Source: a phage
NCBI GenBank assembly: GCA_012813795.1
Contig: GCA_012813795.1_4087.1
Strand: one strand, 5' to 3'
DNA: 64,000 bases
The notes under the pieces were generated by a model. The model was not told the origin of the DNA. It did no database searches and saw nothing but the letters and a program-made list of their open reading frames with translations. Shown here piece after piece: positions 1-64,000 of the stretch (the first letter of the stretch is position 1; each line of letters begins with the position of its first letter). The position numbers were made by a program, and so were the translations under genes.

Positions 1-2634
1 AACGCAGTAACTGTAAACGTCGGTGGTATTACTGCTAAAGGTGGCTTGACTGTTGCTTCTGGAAACTTGAAAGTTGCTGCTGCGGCAGTGGTTGATGGTT
101 CAGTAAGTGCTGGTTCATACACAAGTGCTGGAGATAAAATAACACTAGCTAAACCAACAGATGTTACTGGTGATTTGCACGTTGAAGGTGCTTTCACTGC
201 AACTTCCGTTGATTTTAGTGATACTAATTTGACTGTTAAATCACTACAAGTTAATAATGACGTTACTATTGATGGTAACTTAACTATCAAAAATGCTGAG
301 TTGGAAACTAACACATTAGCAAGTACTACAAGTACTACTGTTGGTACTGACCTAATTCTAACTACTGGTACAATTACTGGTGCTCCAATAATTTCTGGTG
401 CTACTACACTAAGTTCAACACTACATACAGTGGGTGCTGCAACTTTTGATAGTACTGTTGATGTTGGTGGTAAAATTACTTCTAAATCAATCCAAGTAAG
501 TGATACTGGTGTTGGTGTAGCTGTTGATAATGATGCAACTGTTGGTGGTTATTTGACAATTGGTGAAACATTAGGTGTTACTGGGTTAAGTACTCTATCT
601 GGTGGGGTTGATGCAGGTTCTGCATTAATTAAAACTACTGGTGAAGTTCAATCCGCAACTCTTCAAACTTCTGGTAAAGCAACACTAGCAAGTGTTGATG
701 TTTCAGGTGATGCAGTTGTTACTGGTGACCTAACTGTTAAAGGTGCATTTACACCTGAAGGTAGCCTAAACATAGGTTCTGCTGTTCTAAACGTTGAAGG
801 TATTGATGCAAGTGCTAACTTAACTGCACTCGGTTCTGTAACTGCTGGTACTACACTAACTGTTACTGGTGTTTCAACTCTAAATGGTGGTACTAACACT
901 ACTACTCTTTCAACAAGTGGTAAAGCTACATTAAGTAGTGCGGAAGTTACTGGTGCTCTAAGTGCTGGTGGTGCTTTAACTGTTACTGGCACTACAAATC
1001 TAACTGGAAAACTAACCGCTGGTGAAGCTGCTCTCAGTTCACTAACAGTTTCTGGTGATGTTACCATTAATGGAACACTAAACCCTGGAACATTGGATCT
1101 ATCTACTACTCCAGTTGATGCGAAAAGCTTGAAATCCAGAGAAACACTAGAAGTTACTGGCCTAAGCACACTAACTGGTGGTTTGGCTGTTAGTGCAAAT
1201 GCCGCAATCACTGCTGCTGGTGACATTACAGGTACGACAATTACCACAACTGGTAAAGGTACATTTGGTAGTGCAGAAGTAACTACTGGTTTGACTGTTG
1301 GTGGTGCTTTGGTTGTTAATGGTGCATCCGTGAACATCTCTGATGCTTCTACTGTGACTATGCCTAAAGCTGATATTTCTGCGAAAGGTATTATCATCGG
1401 TACTAAAGTTAGTTCAAGATCGGAAACTATCCAATTTGTTGGTGATACTTATATTGGTAATGACCTATTTGTTGCTGGTAATATTAACGGTTCAGTAGAT
1501 TTGGATGGTCAGGATATTTCCCTGAACTCATTAACTTCTAATACCACAATTCACGCAGTTGAGGATATTACTACTGATGAAGATATGCACGCACGTGCTG
1601 CAACATTCGGTGCAAAAGGTTCAACATCTAACAGCCTAACTGTTAATGGTAACGCAGTAACTACTGGCGACTTTACGGTTACTGGTAAGATTATTGGTAC
1701 ACTGGACCAATCTGCAAGTGCAGTCGAAGTTAAATCTCTAACTTCTACAACCTTTATCGCTGCTAACACAACCCTTACCGTTGGTTCAACAATCACTGCT
1801 GAAGGTTTGAGTACATTGAAAGGTGGTATTGTAACTAATGGTGCTACAATCAACGCTGGTGCTGGTGCTATCACCACAACTGGTGATGTTTCTGGTGCAA
1901 ACGTTAATGTATCTGGTGCAGTATCAACTGCAACTATTACAACTTCTGGCCTAGCAACTATGGCAAGTGCTAAGATTAACACTACTCTAGCAGTTACTGG
2001 TGCAACTACACTATCTGATGTTGTTACTATCGGTAAGAAACTAACTGTTAGTACTGGTGGTATCGAAATCACTGCGGGTGGCTTCAATGTAGTTGCGGGT
2101 GGTGCAGCAATTACTGGTGCTACTAACCTTAAAGGTGCTGTAACACTAGGTTCTGCGTCTGCTGATGCAATCACAGTTACTGGTACATCTTCATTTGCTG
2201 AAAATGCAACATTTGCTAAAGATGTAACTATTGAAGGTACACTACATACTGATATTGCTGATTTAGTAACTGAAAGTGTAACTACTAAAAAGTATGCTGT
2301 TACACCTGCTGCTAAAGTTACTGCTTCTGGTGTGGCTCCGTCTGAAGGGACATGGACACCTGATGGTCAATCAAATGTGTATTATATCACACTTGACCAA
2401 GCAACAACTACTCTTGGTCCAATTAACGGATTGATTGGAAGTGGGAAGGCTGGTTCTTACTATATCTACGTACAACAAGATGCAACTGGTGGACGTGAAT
2501 TTACCACTGATGGTACTTATGCAGTAGTAGGTGGTGAGATTAATAAAACACAAAATACAGTTAGTATCATTCAGTTGATTTATGATGGATACAGCCCAGT
2601 AGTAGATATGTTTATAGCTCAACGTACTGCTTAA
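1..2634 (+). CDS. Tail fibre-like structural protein, 5' end lies outside the window
   Basis: Reading frame is open from nt 1 (track ORF 46..2634 begins at TTG); long Thr/Gly/Ser/Val-rich quasi-repetitive sequence typical of fibrous proteins. Confidence 0.6.
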   Translation, partial: NAVTVNVGGITAKGGLTVASGNLKVAAAAVVDGSVSAGSYTSAGDKITLAKPTDVTGDLHVEGAFTATSVDFSDTNLTVKSLQVNNDVTIDGNLTIKNAELETNTLASTTSTTVGTDLILTTGTITGAPIISGATTLSSTLHTVGAATFDSTVDVGGKITSKSIQVSDTGVGVAVDNDATVGGYLTIGETLGVTGLSTLSGGVDAGSALIKTTGEVQSATLQTSGKATLASVDVSGDAVVTGDLTVKGAFTPEGSLNIGSAVLNVEGIDASANLTALGSVTAGTTLTVTGVSTLNGGTNTTTLSTSGKATLSSAEVTGALSAGGALTVTGTTNLTGKLTAGEAALSSLTVSGDVTINGTLNPGTLDLSTTPVDAKSLKSRETLEVTGLSTLTGGLAVSANAAITAAGDITGTTITTTGKGTFGSAEVTTGLTVGGALVVNGASVNISDASTVTMPKADISAKGIIIGTKVSSRSETIQFVGDTYIGNDLFVAGNINGSVDLDGQDISLNSLTSNTTIHAVEDITTDEDMHARAATFGAKGSTSNSLTVNGNAVTTGDFTVTGKIIGTLDQSASAVEVKSLTSTTFIAANTTLTVGSTITAEGLSTLKGGIVTNGATINAGAGAITTTGDVSGANVNVSGAVSTATITTSGLATMASAKINTTLAVTGATTLSDVVTIGKKLTVSTGGIEITAGGFNVVAGGAAITGATNLKGAVTLGSASADAITVTGTSSFAENATFAKDVTIEGTLHTDIADLVTESVTTKKYAVTPAAKVTASGVAPSEGTWTPDGQSNVYYITLDQATTTLGPINGLIGSGKAGSYYIYVQQDATGGREFTTDGTYAVVGGEINKTQNTVSIIQLIYDGYSPVVDMFIAQRTA

Positions 2635-2642
2635 TATATATG

Positions 2643-2663
2643 GTGCGGGGATTTTCCCCGCAC
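2643..2663 (+). terminator. Stem-loop directly after fibre gene stop
   Basis: GTGCGGGG-ATTTT-CCCCGCAC perfect 8-bp GC-rich stem; weak T-tract after it. Confidence 0.4.
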
Positions 2664-2702
2664 TGTATTGTAAATAATTTAATTTTTTAATGAGGTAATA
2701 TT

Positions 2703-62512: not shown

Positions 62513-62523
62513 TATAATTCACC

Positions 62524-63072
62524 TTATAAGTAACTAATCAGTAAATTCTCGGATTGAACAAGATGTTCTAATTCCATTTTAGCAGTTCCTATGAAGTTTT
62601 GTGTCATAAGATTATTATATCCTGCTTCTCGGTTTTGTCCCTTTGAATAACGAGAAATGTGACATAAATTAACACCAGCCACTTCTGCACTTGCATGTTT
62701 AGCAGTACTGTATCCATCGCGAATCGCTTTCAATTCTTCGTAAGTAACTTCATAACTATAGCTATGGGTATGTGCTCCTGGATATAGTTCGTAAGTTTTC
62801 AATGGTTTCAATTGTTCGATAAAAATATTATAATTCATCTCTTCCTGAATTTCACGGAATAGTGCATCTTCTAAGGTGGCATCGGTATCTTCGACTGTTC
62901 CACCACAACCACCCAGTAAACCATCCCAACGAAGCTGGAGTAATACCAGATTCACAACAGGGATATCATTTAATTCATAACCTTTATATGGGTTACAATT
63001 TCGAGCAAAGAAGTAACAGAATACAAAGTTTGCTCGTTTACCATACTCACCTAGAGGTACTTCTCGAATCAT
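62524..63072 (-). CDS. Nudix-like hydrolase (divergent Nudix box)
   Basis: LGGCGGTVEDTDATLEDALFREIQEE approximates GX5EX7REUXEE with a short insertion. Confidence 0.45.
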   Translation of the reverse strand: MIREVPLGEYGKRANFVFCYFFARNCNPYKGYELNDIPVVNLVLLQLRWDGLLGGCGGTVEDTDATLEDALFREIQEEMNYNIFIEQLKPLKTYELYPGAHTHSYSYEVTYEELKAIRDGYSTAKHASAEVAGVNLCHISRYSKGQNREAGYNNLMTQNFIGTAKMELEHLVQSENLLISYL

Positions 63073-63821
63073 TTCATTCTATCCTTAATGATAGTTTCCA
63101 GTACTGGAATCGCTTTTGTAGCTGGTTTTATAATTTTTTCATTGAACATGAAATCGTTATCATTTTTTCTGATGTTGATATTAACACTAAAGCATGGTAA
63201 ACAAGCAACCAGATGTGACCATTTCAGTACTGTGTCACTGCTACCAATGACTACAACTGTATCATCTTCTGTTAAGGATTGCAATACTAAATTACGCTCA
63301 TCGTATATTGGGAGTTTTTCACCATCAACATAACGATAATATTCACCAATGAACACTACGTTTGGTTTCGCAAAGACACCTTCTTTCGGAATGTACGGTT
63401 CATAACCACAATCCACAATACTATAATCGTCACCACCAATTGTAAAATTCTCAATAACTTCTTTTAAATTACCATGTAACTTTAATTCATTACCACCAAT
63501 ACGAGTATAGAGATCATCCATATTCGAAGTCATATGTAAAAAGTTATCCCCGTATGTATCTTCTAGAGATTTGATATAATAATGCATATCATTAGGAACA
63601 CAATCTTTCATTTTATCACGTAATGTATTATAGAAAGTGTGTACTAAATGATACTTAGTACTAAGACGTGCAATGTTACATACATCATTTATTTGAAATT
63701 GATCCCATAGACCATCGTCCATGCGAAACGGTTCCATCCCACTTTCAACGGATAGACCTGCACCGGAAATAACCAATACACGTTTATTACCTTTATTTTT
63801 TATAAAAGAGTCAGAAATCAT
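63069..63821 (-). CDS. Sir2-family (sirtuin-like) NAD-dependent protein
   Basis: VLVISGAGLSVESGMEPFR (GAGxSxxSGxxxFR), LHGNL, VVFIGE and VVVIGSS sirtuin blocks; no obvious zinc-ribbon cysteines. Confidence 0.6.
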   Translation of the reverse strand: MISDSFIKNKGNKRVLVISGAGLSVESGMEPFRMDDGLWDQFQINDVCNIARLSTKYHLVHTFYNTLRDKMKDCVPNDMHYYIKSLEDTYGDNFLHMTSNMDDLYTRIGGNELKLHGNLKEVIENFTIGGDDYSIVDCGYEPYIPKEGVFAKPNVVFIGEYYRYVDGEKLPIYDERNLVLQSLTEDDTVVVIGSSDTVLKWSHLVACLPCFSVNINIRKNDNDFMFNEKIIKPATKAIPVLETIIKDRMK

Positions 63822-64000
63822 AGCTTACCTACTGTACCTAATGAACTCAAATCATATACAAATAATATACACACAACAGAGATGATAATATGATATACCA
63901 TCCATCCATTGAATTTCTCTTTGTTTTTGATAATTTTATATATACATTTAATATTATTGTACGCTGCAACTGCTAGAAATACAACAACAAAATAAACAAA

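Follow-up and report, generated by a model that had tools for sequence, protein, structure and literature searches.

The 64,000-nucleotide stretch of phage DNA considered here (NCBI GenBank assembly GCA_012813795.1, contig GCA_012813795.1_4087.1), hereafter the window, carries the palindrome AGTACT at 141 positions, and this word is kept genome-wide by selection on the DNA sequence, irrespective of frame, gene class and coding status. Among all 6-mers of the window, AGTACT is the most over-represented, and it is the sole strongly enriched 6-bp palindrome (7.6-fold). Judged from sequence, and with a little less than an even chance, it is the recognition site of a candidate two-fold-symmetric double-stranded DNA-binding protein that would both control early promoters and tag the whole genome. 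The observation itself is very secure, and the protein-binding mechanism moderately so. The window belongs to an Asteriusvirus-type jumbo myovirus of Escherichia coli. It is 97–99% identical to phage A4 and approximately 80–84% identical to 121Q, PBECO4 and others, all of about 350 kb. A prophage or host origin was rejected, as no counterpart was present in the E. coli genomes searched. Simple calling of open reading frames (ORFs) gave 90 genes, 86 on the minus strand, which together occupy 91% of the window.

The original prediction, made by eye, centered on the octamer CAGTACTG, with at least 35 copies, and on its extension to the 12-mer TTCAGTACTGAA. This was an underestimate, since the exact count of the octamer is 45, versus 0.85 (maximum 4) in dinucleotide-preserving shuffles. 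The latter value agrees with the one copy per 64 kb or so that had been anticipated from base composition. The 12-mer occurs seven times (0.02 expected), at exactly the positions first given (14696, 27555, 29426, 30800, 35259, 51269, and 52509). The octamers placed at 4300, 6680, 25809, 36252, 43951, 53158, and 55953 were likewise exact, whereas the remaining examples were displaced by 1–21 bases; for instance, those put at 21042, 23107, and 47807 start at 21032, 23086, and 47796. The octamer is, however, not the core unit that it had been taken for. Low-order Markov analysis revealed a nested signal with the hexamer AGTACT at its center and CAGTACT (75 copies) and AGTACTG (71 copies) symmetric around it, and the C..G flank is a lineage-specific preference. 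The 141 copies of AGTACT (2.2 per kb) compare with 18.5 expected from an order-1 and 31.8 from an order-2 Markov model. A maximal-order Markov null was dropped as uninformative, because the sub-words share the same enrichment, and low-order Markov models and a codon shuffle were used instead. In this shuffle, synonymous codons were exchanged inside each gene in 300 replicates, so that the proteins and the per-gene codon usage were kept. This codon-aware count, on which the original prediction had been staked, left an approximately 9-fold excess of the octamer (45 versus 5.0 ± 1.6, maximum 10) and 141 versus 48.6 ± 5.0 copies of AGTACT. Permutation of whole codons gave 3.1 octamers and 37.0 hexamers. 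Both codon nulls are conservative, because the codon usage that they preserve is already inflated by the motif.

The sites occupy every reading frame. AGTACT encodes Ser-Thr at 69 sites and Val-Leu at 42, is read as xAG-TAC-Txx at 17, and is non-coding at the other 13. The 45 octamers are distributed similarly (25 S-T, 15 V-L, 3 Q-Y-W, and 2 intergenic), a multi-frame use like that of the cyanobacterial palindrome HIP1. The 12-mer had been thought to force the peptide FSTE; it does so in three of its seven copies, while three are in the S-V-L frame and one is intergenic. Ser-Thr is spelled AGT-ACT 69 times, against 20.5 expected by codon frequencies, and Val-Leu is spelled GTA-CTN 58 times, against 21.9. 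The S-T dipeptide itself is raised (138 versus 89 expected), whereas T-S is not (77). The skewed spelling, the use of all frames and the raised S-T content therefore place the pressure on the DNA, where it even shifts protein sequences. The genome of 121Q contains, at 75464–75555, a tRNA-Ser with the unusual anticodon ACU (confirmed with ARAGORN), which reads AGU, the Ser codon that AGTACT forces in Ser-Thr frames, and a tRNA-Thr(UGU) lies near it; no tRNA is present within the window itself. This tRNA-Ser(ACU) may be a compensation for the motif-driven codon usage.

The sites are also retained at orthologous positions, the second comparison by which the original prediction was to be judged. 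In alignment with 121Q (80% nucleotide identity), AGTACT is intact at 42 of 76 sites (55%), versus 32.5% for background hexamers, and the octamer at 9 of 17 (53%), versus 24%. Where both phages encode Ser-Thr, the spelling AGT-ACT is kept in 19 of 21 cases, compared with 58% for these codons elsewhere; conservation of the S-T dipeptide is only average (0.68 against 0.67). The proposed selection at the DNA level is thus borne out by the occupation of all three frames, the skewed Ser-Thr and Val-Leu encoding, and the synonymous retention. 121Q lacks the other 34 of the 76 window sites, and about 40% of sites are lineage-specific. It is chiefly the density that is maintained, with the sites turning over.

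The enrichment, 6–10 times, is common to every RaK2-like genus tested, with hosts in Escherichia, Klebsiella, Salmonella, Yersinia, and Cronobacter. AGTACT was counted 88 times in 121Q (12.2 expected), 111 times in A4 (12.6), 105 times in Klebsiella phage RaK2 (10.5), 85 times in Salmonella phage Munch (13.3), 95 times in Yersinia phage fHe-Yen9-04 (10.6), and 53 times in Cronobacter phage GAP32 (6.1). In the first 200 kb of 121Q, 590 copies were found versus 56 expected, and all 10-kb bins are elevated. The core is constant and the flank varies: Asteriusvirus and RaK2 favor C..G, and either A..T or C..G is favored in Munch, fHe-Yen9-04, and GAP32. G at −1 is disfavored in all six phages, and the outer flanks are T-rich. 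No enrichment was observed in the Pseudomonas relative PA5oct (1 versus 7.8), T4 (3 versus 4.9), the Vequintavirinae phage A73 (7 versus 6.1), or an E. coli K-12 sample (3 versus 4.8). The density in the latter is 0.06 per kb, compared to 2.2 in the window, i.e., an approximately 37-fold difference. The unrelated Escherichia phage A73 (142 kb) nevertheless carries a patch of about 1 kb (15000–16200 of the examined locus) with two promoters nearly identical to early promoters of Asteriusvirus, AGTACT sites included, which suggests that a cassette of early genes passed horizontally between coliphages infecting the same cell.

Within the window, the sites (Table 1) are spread evenly. Their non-coding share (9.2%) equals the non-coding fraction of the window (9.1%), and their distribution across genes prefers no gene class (chi-square p = 0.95). 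Spacing is slightly more even than random, with a coefficient of variation of 0.84 and a variance-to-mean ratio of 0.84 in 4-kb bins. Sub-random coefficients (0.77–0.92) were also obtained for six of seven non-early regions of relatives, and gaps are never above about 2.7 kb. The flank preference is the same on the left and the right at ±1 and ±3 (p about 0.3), although 96% of the window genes are on one strand. The even spread and symmetric flanks therefore fit recognition of the duplex by a two-fold-symmetric reader, and the even spread fits selection for coverage rather than gene-by-gene regulation. A search of the window for periodicity or a fixed pair spacing revealed none; pairing at 20 bp is present only in the early regions of relatives. 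Palindromes of at least 12 bp around the core number 12 in the window, versus 2.7 expected.

Table 1. Coordinates of AGTACT-containing features in the 64-kb window.
Feature	Position	Frame or context
AGTACT field, 141 sites	1..64000	counted against Markov and synonymous-shuffle nulls
CAGTACTG	4300..4307	V-L frame, plus-strand gene
CAGTACTG	5182..5189	V-L frame, plus-strand gene
CAGTACTG	6116..6123	S-T frame
CAGTACTG	6680..6687	S-T frame
CAGTACTG	13355..13362	V-L frame
TTCAGTACTGAA 12-mer	14696..14707	encodes F-S-T-E
TCAAGTACTTGA, 12-bp palindrome, A..T-flanked core form	16573..16584	
AGTACT as entire spacer between Shine-Dalgarno (AAGGAG) and ATG	17966..17971	minus-strand gene
CAGTACTG	21032..21039	S-T frame, inside tail sheath gene
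CAGTACTG	23086..23093	Q-Y-W frame
CAGTACTG	23484..23491	Q-Y-W frame
CAGTACTG	25809..25816	S-T frame
ATTCAGTACTGAAT, 14-bp palindrome containing the 12-mer	27554..27567	S-V-L frame
CAGTACTG	27995..28002	V-L frame
TTCAGTACTGAA 12-mer	29426..29437	intergenic, 39 bp upstream of minus-strand start codon; another AGTACT at 29452, 23 bp off
CAGTACTG	29986..29993	S-T frame
TTCAGTACTGAA 12-mer	30800..30811	S-V-L frame
CAGTACTG	33876..33883	S-T frame
TTCAGTACTGAA 12-mer	35259..35270	encodes F-S-T-E
CAGTACTG	36252..36259	S-T frame
CAGTACTG	36984..36991	S-T frame
CAGTACTG	39104..39111	V-L frame
CAGTACTG	39447..39454	S-T frame
CAGTACTG	41804..41811	S-T frame
CAGTACTG	41963..41970	S-T frame
ATCAGTACTGAT, 12-bp palindrome	43912..43923	S-T frame
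CAGTACTG	43951..43958	V-L frame
CAGTACTG	47796..47803	S-T frame
CAGTACTG	48338..48345	V-L frame
CAGTACTG	51172..51179	S-T frame
TTCAGTACTGAA 12-mer	51269..51280	encodes F-S-T-E
TTCAGTACTGAA 12-mer	52509..52520	S-V-L frame
CAGTACTG	53158..53165	S-T frame
CAGTACTG	54777..54784	S-T frame
CAGTACTG	55764..55771	Q-Y-W frame
CAGTACTG	55953..55960	intergenic, 32 bp upstream of minus-strand start codon; another AGTACT at 55937, 17 bp off
CAGTACTG	57746..57753	S-T frame
CAGTACTG	58658..58665	S-T frame
CAGTACTG	58749..58756	V-L frame
CAGTACTG	59535..59542	V-L frame
TGCAGTACTGCA, 12-bp palindrome	59580..59591	S-T frame
CAGTACTG	61418..61425	V-L frame
CAGTACTG	61603..61610	S-T frame
CAGTACTG	62278..62285	S-T frame
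CAGTACTG	62703..62710	S-T frame
TTCCAGTACTGGAA, 14-bp palindrome	63096..63109	V-L frame
CAGTACTG	63225..63232	V-L frame
CTTAGTACTAAG, 12-bp palindrome, T..A-flanked core form	63654..63665	

Two further word biases are present in the window. Six-base palindromes are strongly avoided, 26 of the 64 being wholly absent (e.g., CAGCTG, 0 versus 8.2 expected; CCATGG, 0 versus 9.2; and AGCGCT, 0 versus 3.8). The SpeI site ACT-AGT spells Thr-Ser once, versus 11.5 expected, and GATC is low (124 versus 193). The avoidance is the same in all relatives (23–30 absent) and weaker in PA5oct (12) and T4 (9). On the plus strand, CTGGTGCT (10 versus 1.0 expected), CTGGTG (47 versus 15), and GGTGCT are in excess; on the coding strand, the reverse complement of the CTGGTGCT-type word is AGCACCAG. 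This word is partly like Chi (GCTGGTGG), which itself has only 2 + 3 copies in the window.

In the relatives, the early-gene and terminal-repeat region holds 6.5–8 AGTACT per kb, versus about 2–2.5 per kb genome-wide. In 121Q, the density is highest, at 65 per 10 kb, between 130 and 150 kb, where the ORFs are tiny and set apart from one another. There, AGTACT is part of sigma-70-type promoters in three arrangements: TTGACA-N9-AGTACTG-TATAAT, AAAAAGTACTTGCAA-N16-TATAAT, and CAGTACTATTGACA-N9-AGTACTGGCATAAT. On the coding strand, it starts 7–8 bp before the −10 hexamer in 23 of 135 promoter-like sequences, whereas about 0.8 would be expected at the elevated density. Klebsiella phage Muenster, from another genus, served as an independent test. 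Its 20-kb terminal repeat contains 157 AGTACT, approximately 30-fold over expectation, and the first 30 kb of this phage contain 70 copies of CAGTACTG versus 0.3 expected. Its stereotyped promoter is AAAAGTAC[TTGACA]-N10-cAGTACTG[TATAAT], in which one AGTACT ends on the first base of the −35 hexamer (AGTAC[TTGACA]) and a second, 20 bp downstream, abuts the −10 hexamer (AGTACTG[TATAAT]). Indeed, positional peaks are observed at −7/−8 (24 cases) and −27/−28 (14 cases), the 20-bp pair distance occurs 21 times, and an independent promoter scanner scored these promoters as perfect (12/12). With a 56-nt promoter as the query, all Asteriusvirus genomes yielded intergenic copies, 9–24 each and 14 in A4. 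In IMG/VR, the exact dual-site pattern is found almost only on jumbo contigs of 345–371 kb, which represent four genera (among them 121Q, RaK2, Serratia phage BF, and fHe-Yen9-04) and, in addition, uncultivated relatives. As in an operator, a dyad-symmetric site thus overlaps core promoter elements, in the early regions of the relatives and not in the window. By analogy, two sites about two helical turns apart at −35 and −10 form the classical layout of an operator that would exclude RNA polymerase.

Two other features of these parts of the genomes contain AGTACT. At 135.2–137.2 kb, 121Q has a 2-kb stretch without an annotated gene and with dense AGTACT, including three copies within 30 bp at 136969–136998 (spacings 11 and 13 bp); this may be a regulatory or origin-like region beside the early genes. 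In Muenster, perfect palindromes of 18–24 bp with a central AGTACT and differing stems (e.g., AGGGAATCAGTACTGATTCCCT and AGAGATTCCAGTACTGGAATCTCT) lie in 5′ untranslated regions (UTRs) at 3920–3950, 10079–10102, 11630–11647, 14176–14197, and 14541–14562. These palindromes might form either RNA hairpins with a GUAC loop or cruciforms in the DNA.

A site-specific binding protein would account for both classes of sites as follows. The factor would read AGTACT, preferably flanked by C..G or A..T and, further out, by T-rich sequence, with CAGTACTG and AAGTACTT as predicted binding words. With a dimer on the two promoter sites, which lie some two helical turns from each other, access of RNA polymerase would be blocked and early transcription thereby controlled, and probably shut off. 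The approximately 800 dispersed sites per genome would let the same protein coat, organize or mark the phage chromosome. The postulated factor is most likely encoded by the RaK2-like jumbo phages themselves. Among the roles first suggested for the motif, that of a DNA-binding site has the strongest support, as early promoters of relatives incorporate the motif, while that of a modification target has lost ground. The symmetric flanks at ±1 and ±3 are as expected of dyad-symmetric recognition of double-stranded DNA.

Several points weigh against this binding-protein model. Pfam screens of 90 window ORFs and 95 early-region ORFs detected no helix-turn-helix, ribbon-helix-helix or other sequence-specific DNA-binding domain. 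A sharp 6-bp palindrome is more typical of enzymes, such as methyltransferases and nucleases, than of bacterial repressors. The promoter-embedded class was not found in the window, which carries the dispersed class. Many promoter copies are paralogous duplicates, each genome having 9–24 nearly identical copies of 56 bp, and the cases behind the positional peaks are therefore not entirely independent of one another; despite this, the design is common to several genera and has at least three distinct placements. The sole DNA-associated candidates are an early protein like the H-NS N-terminus and a weakly Dps/ferritin-like DUF5856 protein. The former, with an H-NS-type N-terminal oligomerization domain (PF22470, E = 1.3e-5) and an unassigned C-terminal half in Muenster gp011 (5709–6209), is also found in 121Q (141544–142026, gene 277) and A4 (11114–11590). 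It is common to Alcyoneusvirus and Asteriusvirus and was not detected in all enriched genera; its sequence would allow it to act against H-NS or as a nucleoid protein of the phage. The DUF5856 ORF (37185–37643 of the window, minus strand), whose similarity to Dps/ferritin is weak, is 78% identical to 121Q gene 518 and conserved in every RaK2-like genus examined. Its orthologues are annotated as ‘starvation-inducible DNA-binding protein’ or ‘ferritin-like’ and, in A4, as a structural protein. Both proteins were set aside as the reader, since neither is expected to read a 6-bp palindrome. In addition, 121Q genes 234–248 (17089–31255 of the examined locus) comprise about 14 tandem paralogues on the strand opposite to their neighbors, annotated as RCC1-like ‘putative DNA condensation’ proteins.

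A reading related to the binding-protein model, unlikely though conceivable, is that AGTACT is a sequence-encoded ‘self’ tag, whose excess density over host DNA is read by a phage protein and which doubles as the shut-off operator of early promoters. The reader would tell the phage from the host chromosome by the approximately 37-fold difference in density. This distinction could serve to steer transcription, to protect phage DNA from a nuclease that degrades the host DNA, or to pick out the DNA to be condensed and packaged. AGTACT would then do for jumbo phages with unmodified DNA what hydroxymethylcytosine does for T4. Instead of a binding protein, an enzyme might recognize the site. AGTACT as the target of a phage modification enzyme (e.g., N6-adenine or N4-cytosine methylation), an epigenetic mark by which early promoters would switch between injected and newly replicated DNA, is distinctly unlikely. 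An exact 6-bp palindrome with weak flanks has the typical shape of a methyltransferase site, and sites overlapping −35 and adjoining −10 resemble those of GATC-regulated promoters. The clade does encode DNA methyltransferases, and RaK2 DNA has been reported to resist many restriction enzymes (PMC3622015). However, the RaK2 paper reports only two methyltransferases (PMC3622015), and the clade's two enzymes do not explain AGTACT: the C5 methyltransferase resembles Dnmt3 and is short, as is its recognition domain, and the second belongs to the Dam family PF05869, which usually targets GATC. Bisulfite data showed CpG methylation in RaK2 DNA (PMC3622015), and AGTACT contains no CpG. No cognate methyltransferase was found in the Pfam screen of the window ORFs. 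A 5-methylcytosine target is unsupported, given this CpG methylation, the Dnmt3-like nature of the C5 enzyme, and the absence of the corresponding decay signature from lost sites (C>T in 3 of 21 single-step differences). A link between the enrichment and the C5 methyltransferase by way of phi92-like/Vequintavirinae phages was likewise rejected, as A73 has only the acquired promoter patch and no enrichment. Moreover, modification alone does not explain upward selection of site density. Equally improbable is that AGTACT is the preferred site of a cleaving or strand-passing enzyme with a two-fold-symmetric active site, such as an endonuclease that nicks or cuts to seed recombination-dependent replication or leave virion nicks, or a T4-type topoisomerase II that cleaves A|GTAC|T with a 4-base stagger. 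The sharp palindromic hexamer with its 4-bp center is suited to such an enzyme, and sites evenly spaced at about 450 bp would be in keeping with a processive or topological role. Topoisomerase II, numerous HNH endonucleases and a complete recombination machinery are encoded by the clade. Yet T4, with the same kind of topoisomerase and recombination system, lacks the enrichment, the fixed placement against −35 and −10 is left unexplained, and the Pfam screens of window and early-region ORFs gave no candidate enzyme of this specificity.

The remaining explanations involve no phage protein acting on DNA and are less probable still. That the selected object is RNA, with AGUACU as the site of an endoribonuclease or RNA-binding protein, e.g., at hairpin tips, is very unlikely. 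Since AGTACT is palindromic, AGUACU would appear in transcripts of either strand. The early 5′-UTR hairpins of Muenster, with AGTACT at the apex and stems that look compensatory (GATTCC/GGAATC, GGAATC/GATTCC, and GAAATT/AATTTC), and the excess of extended palindromes in the window are consistent with this idea. However, an RNA signal needs no palindrome, most dispersed sites have no extended stem, Munch and fHe-Yen9-04 show no extension, and the copies embedded in promoters precede the point at which transcription begins. The strand symmetry of the flanks in a window with nearly one-stranded genes also argues against RNA. A host protein as the reader is similarly remote, be it the nucleoid-occlusion factor SlmA, with phage DNA blocking division, or another Enterobacterales DNA-binding protein. 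The enrichment is confined to Enterobacterales phages and missing from the Pseudomonas relative PA5oct, but host and lineage are inseparable here because PA5oct is also the most distant relative. To our knowledge, no other host factor has an AGTACT site. AGTACT is identical to the center (positions 4–9) of the SlmA site GTGAGTACTCAC, and binding by SlmA depends strongly on G and T in positions 1–2 of the half-site and on a purine in position 3 (PMC3020112). At −1 of the phage sites, G is the least frequent base (5–11% in the six phages) and C the commonest in Asteriusvirus and RaK2 (41–52%), G-T is not enriched at −3/−2, and full GTRAGYRCTYAC matches number 0–1 per 25–64 kb. The SlmA-site idea was, therefore, rejected, the flanks being opposite to what SlmA requires. 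Finally, it is extremely unlikely that the motif is functionless, i.e., a by-product of biased mutation or repair (of the Vsr-CCWGG type), codon-pair bias or avoidance of other palindromes. The strong word biases, with so many six-base palindromes absent, and the turnover of sites relative to 121Q would suit such an origin. Vsr-like repair drive predicts a depleted transition neighbor and was rejected, as none is depleted; the observed/expected ratios of the near-cognates are 1.07 (AATACT/AGTATT), 1.94 (AGCACT/AGTGCT), and 3.26 (GGTACT/AGTACC). Furthermore, the 9-fold excess persists with proteins and codon usage preserved, retention at synonymous positions exceeds the baseline, spacing is more even than random, and placement in promoters is stereotyped.

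If the binding-protein model is true, a clade of the largest enterobacterial phages (RaK2, 121Q, GAP32, CBB, and Eneladusvirus relatives), several of them candidates for phage therapy, has rewritten about 800 positions per genome to hold a 6-bp word at a set density, and its codon choices, even its Ser-Thr dipeptide content, have been shaped by this density. It would also imply an abundant sequence-specific reader that is central to the infection program, and a defined oligonucleotide, promoters and knock-out predictions would provide a handle for finding it. AGTACT would be the first viral counterpart of the HIP1 puzzle, with a function far easier to test. In practical terms, AGTACT is a simple signature by which the clade can be recognized in metagenomes, and it constrains the design of engineered or recoded versions of these phages.

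A literature search for AGTACT with phage terms gave nothing, and the bare motif gave only primer sequences. The genome papers of CBB and RaK2 (PMC3622015) describe early sigma-70-like promoters and terminal repeats, and mention neither AGTACT nor any palindrome. Among known systems, Chi and uptake signals are asymmetric words with strand bias, and AGTACT, a perfect palindrome with symmetric flanks, cannot carry orientation. The word is also that of ScaI-type restriction-modification systems, whose sharp 6-bp specificity it shares, and restriction targets are avoided by phages; yet AGTACT is enriched while all other GC-containing hexamer palindromes are avoided. The ‘ScaI’ match in the RaK2 paper is a culture medium named SCAI and not the enzyme. 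In mechanism, the nearest analogues are dispersed operators and phage proteins that coat the genome. The stoperators of cluster A mycobacteriophages are sites of one regulator, the immunity repressor of these temperate phages, that lie at an early promoter and are dispersed along the genome, within or between genes. They resemble AGTACT in this dual placement and differ in being longer (13–14 bp), asymmetric, oriented with transcription, and fewer (about 25–35 per genome). The proteins p6 of phi29 and TF1 of SPO1 bind the whole phage genome and repress early promoters, and the preferred sites of TF1 overlap early promoters in the terminal-repeat host-takeover region. However, TF1 prefers hydroxymethyluracil DNA and p6 reads bendability, so neither reads a short exact palindrome. 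Noc sites of Bacillus subtilis (ATTTCCCGGGAAAT; PMC3020112) and ParB-type sites are dispersed palindromes that load a chromosome-organizing protein, but they are 14–16 bp long and number only tens; the Pfam screen of the window ORFs detected no homologue of ParB or Noc. The SlmA site shares with AGTACT its central hexamer, its palindromic form (12 bp), its dispersal and a dimeric reader (PMC3020112), whereas its required flanks are absent or disfavored in the phages and its copies are tens per chromosome, not about 800 per phage genome. The closest likeness is to HIP1 (GCGATCGC), a short perfect palindrome that is hyper-abundant genome-wide in cyanobacteria, occupies several coding frames, stands far above composition, is evolutionarily retained, and still has no explained function (PMC5861425). 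HIP1 differs in being a GC-rich word that contains GATC/CGATCG and in belonging to cellular genomes, whereas AGTACT occurs in a virus, has a conserved core of 6 bp, and forms part of early promoters as well. Known methyltransferases of cyanobacteria have targets that overlap HIP1, while no cognate methyltransferase was found for AGTACT. In its excess, its use of several frames and non-coding DNA, and its retention, AGTACT is thus an analogue of HIP1 and not HIP1 itself. Collectively, the phenomenon of a highly iterated palindrome is known; its occurrence in a virus, tied to early promoters, appears to be new.

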